Made by a program: the position numbers and the translations under genes | Notes under the pieces: model-generated | Told to the model about the DNA's origin: nothing | Databases searched by the model: none | Seen by the model: only the letters and a program-made list of their open reading frames with translations | In this document: piece after piece, positions 56,786 through 63,577 of the stretch | Layout: every line of letters starts with the position of its first letter | Numbering within the stretch: the stretch's first letter is position 1 | IMG/VR virus record: IMGVR_UViG_3300015610_000750 | Location: 39,140 to 103,139 of that record | Source of the DNA: a virus | Taxonomy: Duplodnaviria > Caudoviricetes | Length of the DNA stretch: 64,000 bases | Strand: one strand, 5' to 3'

Positions 56786-57835
56786 ATGTATTATATTTAT
56801 GTGTATTTAGACACTAGAAAAAAAGGTTCATATTCATTTGGAGATTTCCATTTTGAATATGAACCTTTTTATATTGGTAAAGGTATCAATGATAGATATC
56901 TAACACATCTTAGGGTTGCGAATGGAAGTAGAAAAGGAAAAAACAATCTAATAGTAACTAGAATAAAAAGTATTCTAAATGATGGTTTTGAACCAATTAT
57001 AGTTAAGGTAATTGAGGGATTAACAAAAGAAAACTATGACAGTTATGAAATATCAACGATTAAACTAATTGGGAAATCTTGTGATGGTTCAGGACCTCTT
57101 TTAAATACAACTGATGGTGGTGATGGTGGGATAACTTGGATTGGAGATCATCACAATAAAGGGAAAAAACTAGAAGAGATTGTTGGTGAGGAAAAGGCAA
57201 CTGAGTTGAAACAAAAATTATCAGAACAAGCATCTAAAAGAGTTGGTGAATTGAATCCTAATTTTGGTAATAAGGGAGAGTTAAATCCAATATTTGGTAG
57301 AAATCACACAAATGATGAATTGAGTAAGATGAGTATTTCAGCACTAGAACAATTTTCAAGTTATACAAAGGAACATATAGATTTCATTGTTAAAAGAATG
57401 AATGATGGTAGAGATAATATTTCTGATGAAATTAAACAAAAATGGTATGAGAATCGTTCTATTCTAATGAAGAATAAATATAATAATGGTGAATTATTCT
57501 CTGACGAACACAGAAAAAAATTAAAAGATACTAATTATAAAAAGTTAAATAAGGGATCTGAAAAGTTAAAATTATCCGAAGAGACTAAAAGAAAATTATC
57601 TGATAGTCTAAAAAATAGAGTATTTACTTTAGAGCATAGAGAGAAACTAAGGAAGTGTATATCATATGATGAGTTTGAATTGGTTATAGTTGAGTTAGCT
57701 AAGAATGGTATTGTTAAAACGATAACATCTTATCGAAAATATGCTAAGGATAATCCTGATTTAAAATATCCTATAAGGCCTGAAAAATCATATAAGAATG
57801 ATGGGTGGTCTGGTTGGAGAAAATATGGTTTGTAA
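56786..57835 (+). CDS. Free-standing GIY-YIG homing endonuclease with NUMOD3 repeats
   Basis: YYIYVY...FYIGKG..R, LLNTTDGGDG, GELNPNFG, LSEETKRKLS; directly after nrdA. Confidence 0.82.
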   Translation: MYYIYVYLDTRKKGSYSFGDFHFEYEPFYIGKGINDRYLTHLRVANGSRKGKNNLIVTRIKSILNDGFEPIIVKVIEGLTKENYDSYEISTIKLIGKSCDGSGPLLNTTDGGDGGITWIGDHHNKGKKLEEIVGEEKATELKQKLSEQASKRVGELNPNFGNKGELNPIFGRNHTNDELSKMSISALEQFSSYTKEHIDFIVKRMNDGRDNISDEIKQKWYENRSILMKNKYNNGELFSDEHRKKLKDTNYKKLNKGSEKLKLSEETKRKLSDSLKNRVFTLEHREKLRKCISYDEFELVIVELAKNGIVKTITSYRKYAKDNPDLKYPIRPEKSYKNDGWSGWRKYGL

Positions 57836-57838
57836 ACC

Positions 57839-57889
57839 TATAAAAAATCCACCTCTGAAAAAAACGAAATTTTAGAGGTTGATATATAC
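57839..57889 (+). promoter_or_regulatory. TATAAAAAATCCACC box plus late promoter upstream of a non-coding region
   Basis: Exact 15-mer; ATATATAC 43 nt downstream. Confidence 0.65.
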
Positions 57890-57970
57890 TAAACAAATTA
57901 AGAAAAATAAAAAAATTAAAAACTTTTTGAAACTTTTTATTTTTTTATTATATATAATATATATTAAAAT

Positions 57971-58372
57971 TACCGTAGTGAATTGGAGGGTTACTTCGTA
58001 AATGGATTACAAAAAAACACTCTTTGATAACTTACTCGGTCAATTATAAAATGGCAAACATAGCGATAGTTTTGAGATACTTCGTATAAACTATGATTCA
58101 ACGATCAAGTGTTTAGCTGACAGCGAAAACTACCTGTCCTGACATCGAAAGAAGTCAGGTTCTAAAATAAACAGGTGAAAAAGTCCGGAAAATACTCCGT
58201 TAAAAGATTAAGGAATTCATAAACTTCCTTCAAAAAAAGAGATGAGTGAGATGTACACTGAAAATATCGGCAAAGTTTTTGGGAGAATTCTTTGTATCGC
58301 TCAGGCTAAATTTACTTGTTTGCATAAATACTAATGACCAGATTCAACAGAAATGTTAGTCTGGTCTTTTTT
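57971..58372 (+). ncRNA. Candidate large structured non-coding RNA (~400 nt), family unknown
   Basis: No ORF, higher GC than flanks; nested stems GCAAACA/TGTTTGC, ACCTGT/ACAGGT, CCTGAC/GTCAGG with a GAAA loop, ATAGTTT/AAACTAT, AAGGAA/TTCCTT, TGAGTGA/TCGCTCA; promoter and terminator flank it. Confidence 0.65.
58336..58372 (+). terminator. Intrinsic terminator closing the candidate ncRNA
   Basis: GACCAGATT...AGTCTGGTC followed by TTTTTT. Confidence 0.75.
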
Positions 58373-58388
58373 GTTTTATTTGTTTTAT

Positions 58389-59012
58389 TCACAAATTATT
58401 CCTCTTAATATCTCGATTAACTTTACTACAAAGTGGTCTTAAATTTGAATAATGATTTAGTTTGACCAAGTCCTCATAGTTTTCAGCACTTGATAGTGGA
58501 ATTATATGGTCTATATCCCATCCATAATTAAACTCACCATTGTATAATCCTTTGTTTTTCCATGTCATCCAATTTTCAAATTGTGACTCTATGTGAGTTT
58601 TAAATTTCTCATAAGTGCATCCTAATATTATTTCTGTTTTTAGTAATTTTTCTGATTTTTTATTTCTAAATGCTAGCTTTATTAGGTTTCTACAACTTCT
58701 TCTGAGCTTAAACATCAAATCTGTGTTATATCTATTTCGAGAATATTCAGTATGATAGTTTGGATTATTAATTTTAAAATCCTTCAAATTTTTTAATACT
58801 AGTTCTTTATTCTCTTTGACATATTCCCTTCTCCTTTCGTTTAATTTTTCCCTATTCTCCTTTTGATATTTTCTTTGTCTTTCTCTAATTCTTTCTCTAT
58901 TAGTATCATCATATTTTTTTCTGTTTTTATTATAACATGATATACATCTCTTTCTTGTATATTTTTTGAATAGGTTTTGGTCGGTTTCTAAACAATCTAT
59001 ACATACTTTCAT
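58389..59012 (-). CDS. HNH endonuclease with N-terminal CxxC motifs
   Basis: CIDC...CISC, LGCT, MTWKN, WDIDHIIPLS, NHYSNLRPL..N..KRN. Confidence 0.85.
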   Translation of the reverse strand: MKVCIDCLETDQNLFKKYTRKRCISCYNKNRKKYDDTNRERIRERQRKYQKENREKLNERRREYVKENKELVLKNLKDFKINNPNYHTEYSRNRYNTDLMFKLRRSCRNLIKLAFRNKKSEKLLKTEIILGCTYEKFKTHIESQFENWMTWKNKGLYNGEFNYGWDIDHIIPLSSAENYEDLVKLNHYSNLRPLCSKVNRDIKRNNL

Positions 59013-59191
59013 ATAATAATTTTTAGTTTTTTTAATTCATTCTTAAAGAGTTCATTTTTACATAGCTCTTCGATAATTATGTTTTCTATAAACTTTGATC
59101 TATTTGAAAAATTAGAATCTACTATTTCAAGAACCTTCGGATCAAGAGTTATTGACGCATTTACTTTTTTAATCTTAACTTTTCTTTTCAT
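59009..59191 (-). CDS. Small ribbon-helix-helix-like regulator
   Basis: SITLDPKVL...NRSKFIE. Confidence 0.6.
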   Translation of the reverse strand: MKRKVKIKKVNASITLDPKVLEIVDSNFSNRSKFIENIIIEELCKNELFKNELKKLKIII

Positions 59192-59312
59192 ATTATCTAT
59201 TTCTTTTTAGTATATATTAAATAACCAAAGTCAAAAACAATAATTTTACAATAATTTTTACTTTTTTGAAAATATTTTTCTATCTTTACAGATTAAATAA
59301 CTATAATAAAAT

Positions 59313-61505
59313 ATGAGACTAACACACCTATCAATATATCAAATATCCAAAGATGGAGTTTTTGATAATGTAAATTCATATAAAGAATTAAATGATTCTA
59401 TTAAAAAGTATGGAGAATCTAAAGGAACACCAGGTTCAGATGAATATAATAATGCTGTTGGGAATTCTTTTGAGATATTTACACAATTTTTCTGTCTTAA
59501 ATATGGAAATCATCCATTATTGGGTATAAAAAATATAACTGATACTAGTGACGATTCATTTAATGTTGGATATGATTTCACGTTTATTGATTTTAGTGAC
59601 AAACCTGGTCAAATTCAGTCTAAATGGAGAGGAAATCCAAATCATCAATTTACAATATCAGAATTAGCAACAAATAGTGCTATTGCTGCTGATATGAATA
59701 TTGATAAGGATAATAATATACTCTTCACTAATTTGGACGATGTTGAAGAGTTATTTCACTATACTTATAAAACGGCTAGAAATAGAAGAAGGGTTTTTGG
59801 TAAAAATTCACAAGAAGAGTCAATTTTGAGGGATCCTAATTTTTGGAACGATTTTAGAAATTGTATAAAAGACTCGTCCAAAAATAGTTTTGAAGATCCT
59901 TACACACCAAGAGATATCCAAGATTGGATGTTAAATGGTATCAATAAAGATGGTGTTGTTTATGAGGGTGCTGAGTCTGTTCTAGGTGGTAAATACACAA
60001 AGGGAAGATTTGAGGCATCGACTGGTGCTGGTAAAACATTATGTCAGTTTTATAACATAGATAGGTCATTCAAAGTGTATGGTAAGAATTTGTCAGTGAT
60101 GATATTACCAACAAGGTCTCTTATAAGTCAAACATTTGGTGAGTTCTACAAGTGGAAAATGTTTGGTGACGATAGTAGTAGAAGTAATGTTTCATGTTTA
60201 ATTATAATGTCTGGGTCGAAGCCAAGATACAACGACCAAGTGGCAAATGTATTACAAACTTTGAGTGTCAAGGATTCTATTGATTTTGTATCAAAAGAGA
60301 TTTCTATTGGTAGAAAAGTTGTAATATTTACAACTATGAAATCACATGGGTTAAAATATTCTGATATTATTGACGGTCTTAAAGAAAAGTCAATTAGAGT
60401 GGGTCTTGAAATTATAGATGAATATCATAATATTATTTCATCGTCAAGTTCTAGAAAAGAGCAACTAGAAATTGCTGAATATCTCAAAAATAGTGAAGAT
60501 AGAACAGATGGTTCTTTATTCTATAGCGCTTCTAATAAGCATGGTCAGATACTTAGTTCGTTTAATGAGGATTTATTCGGTAAGTTATTATGTAAAGTAA
60601 GTAGGAATGAGCTTAGAGTTAGGGGTTATGTATCTCCTAAGCTAGTTTTTAAAATAGTTAGAGTTAAAGAGAAAAAGAACGATTCTGAGTCTCGAAGAAA
60701 TGCTTCGAGAATTAAATTGGATTTAGATAAGGCTCAGAGTGAGGCGGTGGCTATTATATCAGCTTATAAGGACTTACAAAATTATTATGAAAATCCAAAT
60801 ATGATTACTTTTGGAGACCATGTTGAAGGTTGTAGATATATATCTTCTAATGAGGAAGTTAAAAGTAATTTGCCTGGTGTTAAAAGTCATTTTATGGCAT
60901 CAGAAACCACAAATTCGGATAGGGATTATATCATAGATACTATTAGAAATAGTGGTGGTAATATACTAAACCAGCACTCTGTTGCCAAGGAAGGTATTAA
61001 TATTAACAACTTACATGGATCAGTTATTGGTAGAAATATGAGTATAATATCCCTACAACAATCCATTGGTAGAAGTGATAGAGGATTATATTCTGATTTA
61101 TTGAAATTGAATAAAGGTGAAATATCCTTAGATAATCCGAATGGTTGGGAAAAGTATTATAATGTGGTTTATGTTATAGTTGATTCAGATGAATCATTCT
61201 ATCAGAGGGTTAGAGAAATAGTAGGATATCTTTTAGGTGAAGGTATTCCTGAGAGTGAGTGGGATATATCAGAATTAGAAGATGATGGTAAGGGTGGATC
61301 CGAGTATAAGAAGCCCGATTTTTCACCTACAATTACAACTAGTTTTTCTTTTGATAAGAAAAAATTTAAACAAATGATTCAACAAGTTAAAATAGAACTA
61401 ATAGAAGAAGAAAAAAGAATACAGAAAGCTCTTTTAGAGGAAAAAGAAAGAGAAGAAATAAATTCTATGAATTGGTTAGAATTAATGAGATCAAAAAAGA
61501 TATAA
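59313..61505 (+). CDS. Restriction-type nuclease fused to an SF2 helicase (Res-like)
   Basis: GNSFE...GYDF...IQSKW (Mrr-like), ASTGAGKT, IIDEYH, SAS, EGINI, QSIGR. Confidence 0.75.
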   Translation: MRLTHLSIYQISKDGVFDNVNSYKELNDSIKKYGESKGTPGSDEYNNAVGNSFEIFTQFFCLKYGNHPLLGIKNITDTSDDSFNVGYDFTFIDFSDKPGQIQSKWRGNPNHQFTISELATNSAIAADMNIDKDNNILFTNLDDVEELFHYTYKTARNRRRVFGKNSQEESILRDPNFWNDFRNCIKDSSKNSFEDPYTPRDIQDWMLNGINKDGVVYEGAESVLGGKYTKGRFEASTGAGKTLCQFYNIDRSFKVYGKNLSVMILPTRSLISQTFGEFYKWKMFGDDSSRSNVSCLIIMSGSKPRYNDQVANVLQTLSVKDSIDFVSKEISIGRKVVIFTTMKSHGLKYSDIIDGLKEKSIRVGLEIIDEYHNIISSSSSRKEQLEIAEYLKNSEDRTDGSLFYSASNKHGQILSSFNEDLFGKLLCKVSRNELRVRGYVSPKLVFKIVRVKEKKNDSESRRNASRIKLDLDKAQSEAVAIISAYKDLQNYYENPNMITFGDHVEGCRYISSNEEVKSNLPGVKSHFMASETTNSDRDYIIDTIRNSGGNILNQHSVAKEGININNLHGSVIGRNMSIISLQQSIGRSDRGLYSDLLKLNKGEISLDNPNGWEKYYNVVYVIVDSDESFYQRVREIVGYLLGEGIPESEWDISELEDDGKGGSEYKKPDFSPTITTSFSFDKKKFKQMIQQVKIELIEEEKRIQKALLEEKEREEINSMNWLELMRSKKI

Positions 61506-61547
61506 TTTTGATTTTGTGAATTTAATATATAAAAGAAAAAATAGTTA

Positions 61548-61994
61548 ATGAAACACATTAAAAAAATAAACGAGCTAAAAGTAGGCATCATAACACATGA
61601 ACCTATTTTGGAAATGGCAAGGATAAATGATCCTAAGGAATTTCCATATGATGTTTTTGTTTATGGTGGGGATTCTTATGGTTCAGGTAGAAATGAACAT
61701 GGAGAACCACATTTTCATTTTGCTGATAAGATTAAAGGTGGTAAATGGAGTTTTTCAGTTTTAATTCCAACAGTTGAACAATGGAATCAAAATAAAGAAC
61801 TTTATATATCAGAAACATCAAATGGTGATTGGAACTGGACAGGACTTAGAAAAGAAAAAAAGTTGTTAATAAATTGGTTGGATAAACCAAATAACAATTT
61901 GAACCTATATACTAATTTGGAAATAATTAGACAACAATGGAACATTTTAAACACCGACAATAAAAATGTATCACAAATTAAAAGAATAAAATGA
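61548..61994 (+). CDS. CTS-bearing protein with an HxxPHFH (DUF4160-like) motif
   Basis: MKHIKKINE; EHGEPHFH; own TAATATATA promoter at ~61523. Confidence 0.55.
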   Translation: MKHIKKINELKVGIITHEPILEMARINDPKEFPYDVFVYGGDSYGSGRNEHGEPHFHFADKIKGGKWSFSVLIPTVEQWNQNKELYISETSNGDWNWTGLRKEKKLLINWLDKPNNNLNLYTNLEIIRQQWNILNTDNKNVSQIKRIK

Positions 61995-63577
61995 TAGGAA
62001 CAACATATTCAGTTATACAACCAGATATTTATCAGACATTTAAAGATGGTGATGATTTTGAACATATAATCGATAACTATATAATTGAAGCACATTCTGA
62101 TGATCCTCAGAAAAGAGAGTATTTACTTTCTTTACCAAAAAGAGAGAAGAGATTAAAGGCTCTTTCTCTTAGAACAAAGGATTTATATGAATGGAAAACA
62201 TTAATTGATAAGATCACTGGAAGTAGAGTGTCAAATGTTGATCACCTAAAACAAATTATTGCCGATTTTAGAGAATTTATAAAGAGAGCAAAAGTTGAAG
62301 ATAAACTATTTGGTGAAGTAATGACACCTCTCGATGAATTAGCAAGACCAATGGTCGATTTGGTTGAAAAATATGATTCGGAATTTTGGAAGACACCTAA
62401 AAAGGTATTGGATAGTTCTGCTGGTATTGGAACCTTTTTGATTATATGTGCTGCTAAATTTATGAATGGTTTAAAGAATTATCCTGGTTTAGAAGATCCT
62501 GATGTTAGATTCAAATTCATAGTTGAAAATTGTCTTTACTACGGTGAATTACAAAGTGGTAATGCTGCTTTATGGTTATCTGTTATAGACCCCTATGATG
62601 AATATAAAACAAATACTTTTTGGGGGAGCTTTCTTTCAGATAAAGATGATAAGTATAACTCTGATCTAAATGGTGTTTTTGATAAGCATATGAAAGAAGT
62701 ATGGACTGTTGATAAATTTGATTTAATTATTCAAAATCCACCTTATTCTTATTTGAAAGAAACTGATAAGAATAAATCATCTAAGAATCCTAAGACACAA
62801 CCAATGTGGCAATTTTTTGTTCAAAAATCATTAAAACTTTTGAAAGAAGGTGGTTACATGGTTATGGTTCATCCAGGTGGATGGAGGGATTTAGATGGGG
62901 TGTTTAAGGAAACACAAAATCTTTTAAAAGAAAAAAGTATTTTAGAACTTCATATGTTTCCTTTTAAGAGTGGATTAGAAGTATTTGGAGCTAAGACCAA
63001 CTTTGATTATTACATTCTTAAAAATAAAGAAAATAAAGGATGTATAACAGAAATTCATTGTGAGAATGGATCTATTGAAAGATTAAATTTATTAGAATTG
63101 GATTATATACCAGGTGAGAATATTTCAATGATTAATAGTCTTTTCGCTAAAGGGGGTGAGGATCGCGTAAATATAATATCGGATAGCACATATCATACCC
63201 AACAAGGTGAAAAAAAAGGATTTTTATCCAAATTAAAAAATGATAAATTCAAATATCCTGTTGTATATATGGTGTCATTTAAGAATGAACCCAGTTTTTG
63301 GTATTCTTCTATAAACAAAGGACATTTTGGGAATAAAAAGGTTATATGGGCCAATGGTAGTAGTGGTGTTATAATTGATAATAATGGTGAGTATGGACTA
63401 ACACAATTTTCAAGAGCAATTGTTGATGATGTTGAAAATTTGTATAACATTAAGAAAGCACTTGAAAGTGAAAAATTCATAAAAGAAGTAATGTTATTTA
63501 AGAACGGATTAGGACATAAGTATAATAATAAAGTTATATCTATGTTAAAAAAAGATTTTTGGAAGGATTTTATATGA
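61991..63577 (+). CDS. N6-adenine DNA methyltransferase (Eco57I-like, gamma class)
   Basis: GEVMTP, LDSSAGIGTF, FDLIIQNPPY. Confidence 0.85.
   Translation: MIGTTYSVIQPDIYQTFKDGDDFEHIIDNYIIEAHSDDPQKREYLLSLPKREKRLKALSLRTKDLYEWKTLIDKITGSRVSNVDHLKQIIADFREFIKRAKVEDKLFGEVMTPLDELARPMVDLVEKYDSEFWKTPKKVLDSSAGIGTFLIICAAKFMNGLKNYPGLEDPDVRFKFIVENCLYYGELQSGNAALWLSVIDPYDEYKTNTFWGSFLSDKDDKYNSDLNGVFDKHMKEVWTVDKFDLIIQNPPYSYLKETDKNKSSKNPKTQPMWQFFVQKSLKLLKEGGYMVMVHPGGWRDLDGVFKETQNLLKEKSILELHMFPFKSGLEVFGAKTNFDYYILKNKENKGCITEIHCENGSIERLNLLELDYIPGENISMINSLFAKGGEDRVNIISDSTYHTQQGEKKGFLSKLKNDKFKYPVVYMVSFKNEPSFWYSSINKGHFGNKKVIWANGSSGVIIDNNGEYGLTQFSRAIVDDVENLYNIKKALESEKFIKEVMLFKNGLGHKYNNKVISMLKKDFWKDFI

Follow-up and report, generated by a model that had tools for sequence, protein, structure and literature searches.

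We describe here a structured non-coding region at positions 57973-58372 of a 64,000-nucleotide (nt) stretch of viral DNA, referred to below as the window, which forms the final 64 kb of a 103-kb viral contig (IMG/VR record IMGVR_UViG_3300015610_000750). Since CheckV rates the 103-kb contig as 18% complete, the genome of the parent phage should be roughly half a megabase. The region lies between a GIY-YIG/NUMOD3 gene (56786-57835, plus strand) and an endonuclease VII-like gene (58389-59012, minus strand), and it is probably a small non-coding RNA operon consisting of two tandem Y-RNA-like genes, here called Y-small (about 70 nt) and Y-large (about 270 nt), with an intrinsic terminator at the end. 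Y RNAs are the partners of Ro60, a ring-shaped protein of RNA surveillance, and both bacteria and phages encode them beside the Ro60 gene (PMC4201824). Whilst a phage-encoded pair of Y RNAs accompanying Ro60 is known, what is new is the consensus of the handle that the two RNAs have in common and a Y RNA of about 270 nt whose cargo contains a double pseudoknot. For this pseudoknotted variant we found no counterpart in Rfam 15 or in the publications that we consulted.

The identification builds on the genomic neighbourhood of homologous loci. BLAST found one relative, a 634-kb uncultured phage, and the homologue set was assembled through motif scans of viral and metagenome collections plus a search with the neighbouring protein, giving 120 loci with 74 distinct sequences on contigs of 35-634 kb from freshwater, wastewater, activated-sludge and marine samples. 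The first scan of the collections used the 14-mer GGTGAAAAAGTCCG and was too unspecific, returning at least 116 loci that were mostly due to chance, with three true homologues. No match to the Y-large handle pattern was found in 185,579 prokaryote genomes. In the relatives, the gene for the large subunit of ribonucleotide reductase (RNR) is followed by the RNA unit and then, directly downstream on the same strand, by a gene encoding a 483-amino-acid (aa) protein that matches the TROVE and Ro60 vWA domains. Against solved structures, this protein matches Ro60 of the Thermus phage phiLo (9KOP/9L5Y; E 1e-22 over its full length), Rsr of Deinococcus (2NVO) and Ro60 of Xenopus (1YVP). Where at least 400 nt of downstream sequence was available (110 RNA loci), the N-terminus of Ro60 lies no more than 300 nt downstream on the same strand in 107, at a median distance of 34 nt; the three others are the window, a duplicate of the window locus and one locus with a 522-nt gap. 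As Ro60 starts just downstream in nearly all of these loci, the RNAs can be identified as Ro60-associated and Y-RNA-like. The initial annotation had instead proposed co-regulation with head genes and a role in packaging or as an origin, for which we find no support; the conserved neighbours are ribonucleotide reductase and Ro60.

The second line of evidence is the handle itself. In both RNAs the paired 5' and 3' ends form a bulged stem with a U bulge on the 5' side and a 3-nt bulge on the 3' side, in which the 5' strand carries the U bulge and AGYGA and the 3' strand an AAY bulge and UUNCU. A helix of 9-10 base pairs (bp) follows, whose sequence drifts whilst its pairing is kept, and it is capped by an invariant single-stranded UACUUCG. 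Y-small and Y-large are paralogous handle-bearing RNAs, since direct reading shows that they have in common the 5' word UAGYGA, the 3' word AAYUUNCU and the apical UACUUCG. The latter (TACTTCG at 57992-57998 and 58078-58084 in the DNA) is near-invariant among the 74 homologues. Both copies had been recorded in the initial annotation as TACTTCGTA hairpins: the recurrence stands, but these are not hairpins, and only UACUUCG is conserved, with the bases that follow it varying.

Y-small, which like all RNA features described here lies on the plus strand, occupies about 67 nt (57973..58039) and is defined by covariation among 42 homologues and by the covariance model built from it (R1, 78.6 bits). 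Its basal stem CCG/CGG (57973-57975/58037-58039) is followed by the bulged U at 57976, the handle pairs AGUGA/UUACU (57977-57981/58032-58036, making the 5' word UAGUGA) opposite the 3' bulge AAC (58029-58031), and a variable stem of 10 bp (57982-57991/58019-58028). The 3' handle strand AACUUACU at 58029-58036 is the AAYUUNCU motif, as in Y-large. The loop has about 27 nt; its first bases are the invariant UACUUCG (57992-57998), and the conserved A-rich AAAAAAAC forms its end. Across the 42 homologues 93.3% of cells are paired, 10 of the 18 pairs show compensatory changes, and covariation reaches 0.391 compared with 0.143 in shuffles and at most 0.085 when the partners are slid. A pseudoknot proposed earlier between AAACAC..TTGAT and ATCAAGTGTTT finds no support: AAACAC..UUGAU belongs to the covarying stem of Y-small, as its 3' strand, whilst the supposed partner is conserved only at AAGUG.

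Y-large (about 270 nt, 58054..58323) is likewise defined by covariation in 42 homologues. The 5' strand of its handle (58054..58084) aligns position by position with that of Y-small by direct reading, and the 3' strand (58300..58323) has the same AAYUUNCU motif. The outer helix P1, GCAAACA/UGUUUGC (58054-58060/58317-58323), leads to the bulged U at 58061, to AGCGA opposite UUACU (58062-58066/58312-58316) with the 3' bulge AAU (58309-58311), and to P2, UAGUUU(U)GAG/CUCAGGCUA (58067-58076/58300-58308), which is 94% paired. An A and the invariant UACUUCG (58077-58084) come next, so that the P2 5' strand continues into AUACUUCG. The outer helix had already been proposed in the initial annotation and proves to be real: P1 and the handle helix that contains it show compensatory changes at 6 of 12 pairs, for example GAGGACA/UGUCCUC. 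For the whole Y-large model, 90.9% of cells are paired in the 42 homologues and 23 of 49 pairs are compensatory, with covariation of 0.221 compared with 0.128 in shuffles and at most 0.074 with slid partners. Several other pairings were considered. Two alternative partners of the P2 5' strand, AACUAU (58088-58093) and AAACUA (58127-58132), fail in the L209 and L148 clades, and P2 was preferred; a UAGC/GCUA pairing suggested by RNAalifold was passed over for the one that matches the plan of Y-small; and the minimum-energy fold pairs AGCGA (58121-58125) with UCGCU (58297-58301), for which covariation is not consistent.

The handle of Y-large encloses a cargo domain of about 215 nt (58085..58299) with two covarying pseudoknots. 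Its 5' part is variable, with conserved AACUAUGA and AAGUG, and is followed by the conserved GACAGC..A..CUAC. Helix P3 (UACC/GGUG, 58131-58134/58174-58177; three of four pairs compensatory) closes a variable hairpin (58131-58177) that folds well in 52 homologues (median z -2.3), and the conserved single strand GGUGAAAAAGUCCG extends over 58174-58187. The initial annotation had rightly seen GACAGC..A..CUAC and GGUGAAAAAGUCCG as strands flanking a long helix, and this helix at 58131-58177 indeed covaries. Further along are a tentative hairpin with the loop CCGUUAAA (58191-58209; weak, z -0.8) and an optional one, AAGGAA/UUCCUU (58210-58215/58225-58230; two of six pairs compensatory). In the first pseudoknot, PK1, a hairpin loop CAU pairs with AUG (58218-58220/58242-58244), and all three pairs are compensatory with up to five pair types. 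Helix P5 (AGUG/CACU, 58245-58248/58256-58259; two of four compensatory) carries the loop GAUGU, which pairs with AUAUC to form the second pseudoknot, PK2 (58250-58254/58264-58268; three of five compensatory). Finally, P6 (GCAAAG/CUUUGU, 58270-58275/58290-58295; four of six compensatory) bears a conserved loop of 13-14 nt, UUU(C/U)GGGAGAAUU. We found in the cargo neither a tRNA-like element nor a likeness to any Rfam family.

Across the homologues, the near-invariant blocks are single-stranded (UACUUCG twice, AAAAAAC, GACAGC, CUAC, GGUGAAAAAGUCCG and GGGAGAAUU); between them helix sequences drift, and entire hairpins are gained or lost. Such conservation, with fixed loops and drifting paired positions, is the pattern of an RNA. 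The region was predicted to be ORF-free and structured, and both points hold: there is no meaningful open reading frame in 57973-58372 under translation table 11, with TAG read as Q or under table 4 (the longest frames, of 30-68 aa, all lack conservation), and the plus strand folds better than shuffled sequences (z -3.4, with 0/100 shuffles equally good; minus strand z -2.5). What had been taken for one multi-stem RNA of about 400 nt is structured as proposed, but it resolves into two handle-bearing RNAs and a terminator of an identifiable kind. Its absence from known families was likewise borne out. An Rfam search of the whole window at the gathering score found no family matching the RNA stretch, and at E ≤ 10 positions 57800-58450 (651 nt, 4227 families) gave only chance-level matches (snoRNA, miRNA), none better than E=4; ARAGORN found no tRNA or transfer-messenger RNA (tmRNA) in the stretch.

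These searches bear directly on whether the encoded RNA could be catalytic, RNase P-like or part of an established class of large structured RNAs such as GOLLD, ROOL, group I/II introns or tmRNA. Size and pseudoknots would fit such a complex fold, homing endonuclease genes flank the stretch, and GGUGAAAAAGUCCG resembles the CR-I strand of RNase P, GAGGAAAGUCCGG. However, the Rfam and ARAGORN results above tell against it, the GAAAAAGUCCG strand sits mid-molecule and lacks a conserved 3' or P4 partner, and the flanking endonuclease genes are missing from the relatives. The analogy drawn earlier with the paired T-loops around RNase P P12 finds no support, no RNase P match having appeared even at E ≤ 10. 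Nor is the element an intron, since the terminator and an opposite-strand gene follow the RNA. We consider this explanation highly improbable and already largely refuted.

That the two genes specify Y-RNA-like molecules is also in keeping with more distant loci. Model R1 picks up two to five handle RNAs in tandem immediately ahead of Ro60 genes with only 47-57% identity to the Ro60 of the relatives (L157, L160, L165 and L166). In the handle arrays of three of these (L157:1917-2470, L160:2135-2365 and L165:2252-2402) some cargoes are permuted and tRNA-like, with GGUUCGAAUCC T arms, an acceptor-like hairpin and a UAGCUCA...GAGC D arm, and one of the L157 handle RNAs overlaps a match to the Rfam tRNA model. 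Rfam searches of the distant Ro60 loci gave two such tRNA-model matches and no YrlA or other Y RNA family. Because one and the same handle carries tRNA-like, hairpin-repeat and pseudoknotted cargoes beside Ro60 genes, the handle is the constant and the cargo the interchangeable part. The hairpin-repeat cargo was observed at L166 (~2145-2415), upstream of a Ro60 gene of about 50% identity, where a second handle (GAUAGUAAGAGUUAGUGUUACUUCG) leads into another kind of large cargo, namely five or six hairpins in a run, each followed by (A/G)GGU(G/U), resembling repeated protein-binding sites.

Several observations weigh against reading the stretch as a pair of Ro60-binding Y RNAs. Even at E ≤ 10 no Rfam Y_RNA or YrlA match occurs in the window. 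Of the published motif CGAA, CG is invariant, but the full sequence follows UACUU in only 27/73 Y-small and 13/73 Y-large copies, and the window has CGUA in both. Model R1 misses the Y-large handle across the 215-nt cargo, and the likeness of the two handles is a direct reading. No TROVE gene is present in the 103-kb contig (about 18% of the genome), such that the linkage of Y RNAs to Ro60 seen elsewhere does not extend to the window itself. Lastly, contigs from RNA libraries show neither ends, strand nor levels and may include carried-over DNA. With this restriction, metatranscriptome contigs from four runs in three studies cover 57975-58372; the runs were selected as holding this stretch, and uncovered parts of the window do not signify silence. 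A 333-nt contig of run X10 corresponds to 57983-58295 and one of run X16 to 57975-58244. The 619-nt contig of run X17 (58064-58687) shows the layout particular to the window, in which the endonuclease gene comes next, and its depth of 278, compared with about 6-13 for neighbouring contigs of the same run, hints at an abundant RNA.

As the X10 and X16 contigs bridge Y-small and Y-large, the unit could alternatively be one bipartite RNA of about 400 nt that is not processed into two and that offers two docking sites for Ro60, for example as a scaffold for a Ro60 dimer. We regard this as possible but rather doubtful. No terminator separates the two genes, and the sole promoter-like site between them, TTGATA-17-TAAAAT at 58024-58052, has a -35 element (TTGATA) that lies inside the covarying Y-small stem and is not conserved; the phiLo Ro60 forms 2:2 particles (PMC12135203), and the tail of Y-small, by pairing with the complementary 5' terminator arm, could hold the entire unit together. 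On the other hand, proof of a single transcript is beyond the reach of the contigs, each RNA is closed by its own covarying stem, and distant relatives have the arrays of two to five independent-looking handle units described above. Moreover, the AU-rich spacer, which together with the 3' tail of Y-small (GGUCAAUUA...) spans 58040..58053 in the alignments, reads TATAAT in many relatives, 5-8 nt before the first base of Y-large P1. The relatives' consensus thus suggests that Y-large has a -10 element of its own. The late-promoter motifs of the initial annotation were not confirmed, as a sigma-70 scan finds no more sites than in shuffles.

Downstream of Y-large, the intrinsic terminator annotated earlier is well founded. 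It comprises a covarying hairpin at 58334..58372, present in the minimum-energy structure, whose stem (AU)GACCAGA/UCUGGUC(UU) (58334-58342/58360-58368) encloses an inner mini-stem and runs into a U tract (58367-58372). In the wider set its pairs are kept despite changes, as in GGCCGGA/ACCGGCC and GACCGAUG/CAUCGGUC. A simple terminator scanner misses it, the loop being longer than 8 nt. The Y-small tail (58037-58046; CUCUGGUC, in the window CUCGGUCAAUUA) has the sequence of the terminator 3' arm and is complementary to the 5' arm, and may act as an anti-terminator or as a long-range clamp. Separately, one relative (L121:7551-7680, equal to L154:2381-2500) carries about 120 nt of GC-richer sequence (…GGACAAGCUCGUGUAUCUCGAAAGAGUGAACGG…GGUAUCCCACGAGCC…), inserted in the interval from the terminator to the start of Ro60, which may be another small structured element. 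An RNA contig of run X18 has a comparable loose end, UUUGAAACUCGGACAAGCUCGUGUAACCAU, past its terminator.

This tail raises the question of whether the unit is purely a cis-acting leader or attenuator of the Ro60 mRNA, setting translation or read-through and giving rise to no stable trans-acting RNAs. In the relatives the Ro60 ATG is found a median of 34 nt past the terminator, and tail and terminator arm change together in several loci (GGCC in L227, L249 and L191; GGUUUU in L231; GUUAUU in L236; GGUCAUU in L042). There is no such co-change in L171, however, and the duplex energies are only modestly apart, at -9.8 kcal/mol for a tail with its own arm compared with -8.4 kcal/mol for cross combinations. 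About 330 nt with two pseudoknots and two protein-handle motifs go far beyond what an attenuator needs, the same handle is found on tRNA-like Y RNAs, and the window keeps the unit intact though no Ro60 gene follows it. Taken together, a purely cis-acting role appears improbable, and two trans-acting Y-RNA-like molecules remain our preferred explanation.

The window's copy is unusual in its surroundings, being the only one among about 100 loci without an adjacent Ro60 gene. Compared with the closest relative it is 89% identical over the RNA and collinear to the end of the RNR gene; positions 57838-58372 align at 79%, and the similarity stops exactly after the terminator. In that relative the RNR gene is followed by the RNA unit within about 120 nt, and then by Ro60. 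Here, the GIY-YIG/NUMOD3 homing-endonuclease gene (56786-57835, plus strand) has been inserted, specifically in the window, between the gene for the large RNR subunit and the RNA unit. As neither this gene nor the endonuclease VII-like gene occurs in the closest relative or at other loci, the idea that these flanking nucleases are functional partners of the RNA was dropped. A conserved hairpin at 57846-57885, CCACCUCU/AGAGGUUG with loop GAAAAAAACGAAAUUUU and then GAUAUAUAC, was also noted, which may be a processing site, a promoter element or an operator. No U tract follows it; its stem covaries in the relatives (CCCUU/AAGGG, CCUUC/GAAGG), and the closest relative, L119, does not have the hairpin. 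Because it lies right after the RNR stop codon in most relatives and after the inserted GIY-YIG gene in the window, this hairpin travels with the RNA unit.

After the terminator, where synteny with all the relatives is lost, positions 58389-63577 hold the endonuclease VII-like gene on the minus strand, a 60-aa ORF, a DEAD/ResIII helicase (59313-61505), a 148-aa ORF and an Eco57I-like N6-methylase (61991-63577), reaching to the contig end. This looks like a restriction-modification or defence-type variable island at the place where the relatives have Ro60. The 10 kb downstream of the RNA in the closest relative were not found in the 103-kb contig. The window's helicase is absent from the contigs of five relatives, four of which are 95-98% complete, and so cannot be used to place Ro60. 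The Ro60 gene of this phage is either missing or situated past the end of the contig, in which case an inserted island of more than 5.6 kb would precede it. Nevertheless, the window's RNAs retain all conserved positions, and as they are intact and present in RNA libraries they are probably still functional.

How might such RNAs act? Y RNAs have been known for about 40 years, but to our knowledge the role of the end that does not bind Ro60 is clear in few cases, namely the tethering of PNPase in Deinococcus and, with no known purpose, the tRNA mimicry of YrlA. By analogy with the Xenopus, Deinococcus and phiLo complexes (Chen 2014; phiLo Ro60-Yrl1/2 2025), the handle would dock on the outside of the ring formed by phage Ro60. 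Opposite the handle, each RNA would present a cargo, in Y-small the A-rich loop of about 27 nt and in Y-large the 215-nt two-pseudoknot domain, which could recruit, tether or imitate another factor, for instance host PNPase in RYPER-type particles. Host RNA decay, surveillance or repair would thereby be redirected during infection. Arguing from these known complexes, we think it likely that docking of the handle on Ro60 combined with tethering or mimicry by the cargo redirects host RNA surveillance or repair. A more far-reaching proposal, which we put forward as speculative and on balance unlikely, is that Y-large represents a new class of Ro60 cargo, attached through the handle, that captures or imitates a host factor other than a tRNA-binding enzyme (for example an RNase, a ribosome-associated factor or a defence sensor) and works even where the phage Ro60 is unlinked or lost, for example with a hijacked host Ro60, whilst the Y-small tail CUCUGGUC, by competing for the terminator 5' arm, would serve as a Ro60-sensing anti-terminator that sets read-through into Ro60.

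These loci offer a Y RNA of roughly triple the usual size, a large, well-conserved and covarying two-pseudoknot cargo, a small sibling equipped with the same handle, some 100 natural variants and a named protein partner with a solved homologue. They make up a tractable system in which to look for a new Ro60-recruited activity and to study how huge phages rewire host RNA surveillance. The window's copy in turn is a natural test of whether Y RNAs work without a neighbouring Ro60 gene.

Among known systems, the closest parallel is Thermus phage phiLo (PMC12135203; 9KOP, 9L5Y), where two Y-RNA-like genes (Yrl1/Yrl2) lie directly upstream of Ro60 and where the RNAs bind Ro60 and host PNPase in vitro. 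Its Ro60 is the closest solved structure to that of the relatives, and its RNAs are also stem-bulge-stem molecules with a CG(AA) motif on the 5' strand. The phiLo Yrls are, however, small (the resolved Yrl2 comprises positions 4-59), whereas Y-large has about 270 nt with a 215-nt cargo; the motif here is UACUUCG, after which AA is not conserved, and the window has no adjacent Ro60 gene. Bacterial YrlA, YrlB and Yrn1 (Chen et al. 2014, PMC4201824) share the position on the same strand less than 4 kb from Ro60 (here, in the relatives), the occurrence of several Y RNAs per locus and a modular design of Ro60-binding stem and effector module. The permuted order of T, acceptor-like and D elements typical of YrlA recurs in the handle-sharing RNAs of the distant relatives, but the window's two RNAs have no tRNA-like domain, no GGUUCGAAUCC and no Rfam or ARAGORN match, and the GNCGAAN0-1G motif of bacterial Yrl RNAs is replaced here by UACUUCG(N). 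With both strands of the handle conserved, the present RNAs are closer to Yrn1 and to metazoan Y RNAs, in which the Ro60-binding site is a conserved helix with bulges (Stein 2005 and Green 1998, cited in PMC4201824 and PMC12135203). Metazoan Y RNAs likewise have paired ends, a 1-nt 5' bulge and a 3-nt 3' bulge flanking conserved pairs and a variable far module; they differ in their GGUCCGA motif, in their length of about 100 nt, in being made by Pol III and in having no pseudoknotted cargo. Finally, the element resembles GOLLD, ROOL and HEARO in Rfam in being a large structured non-coding RNA, of phage or bacterial origin in those families and here pseudoknotted and phage-borne, with an obscure role. 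It differs from them in having no sequence or structure match, and in that synteny here names the family of its protein partner.

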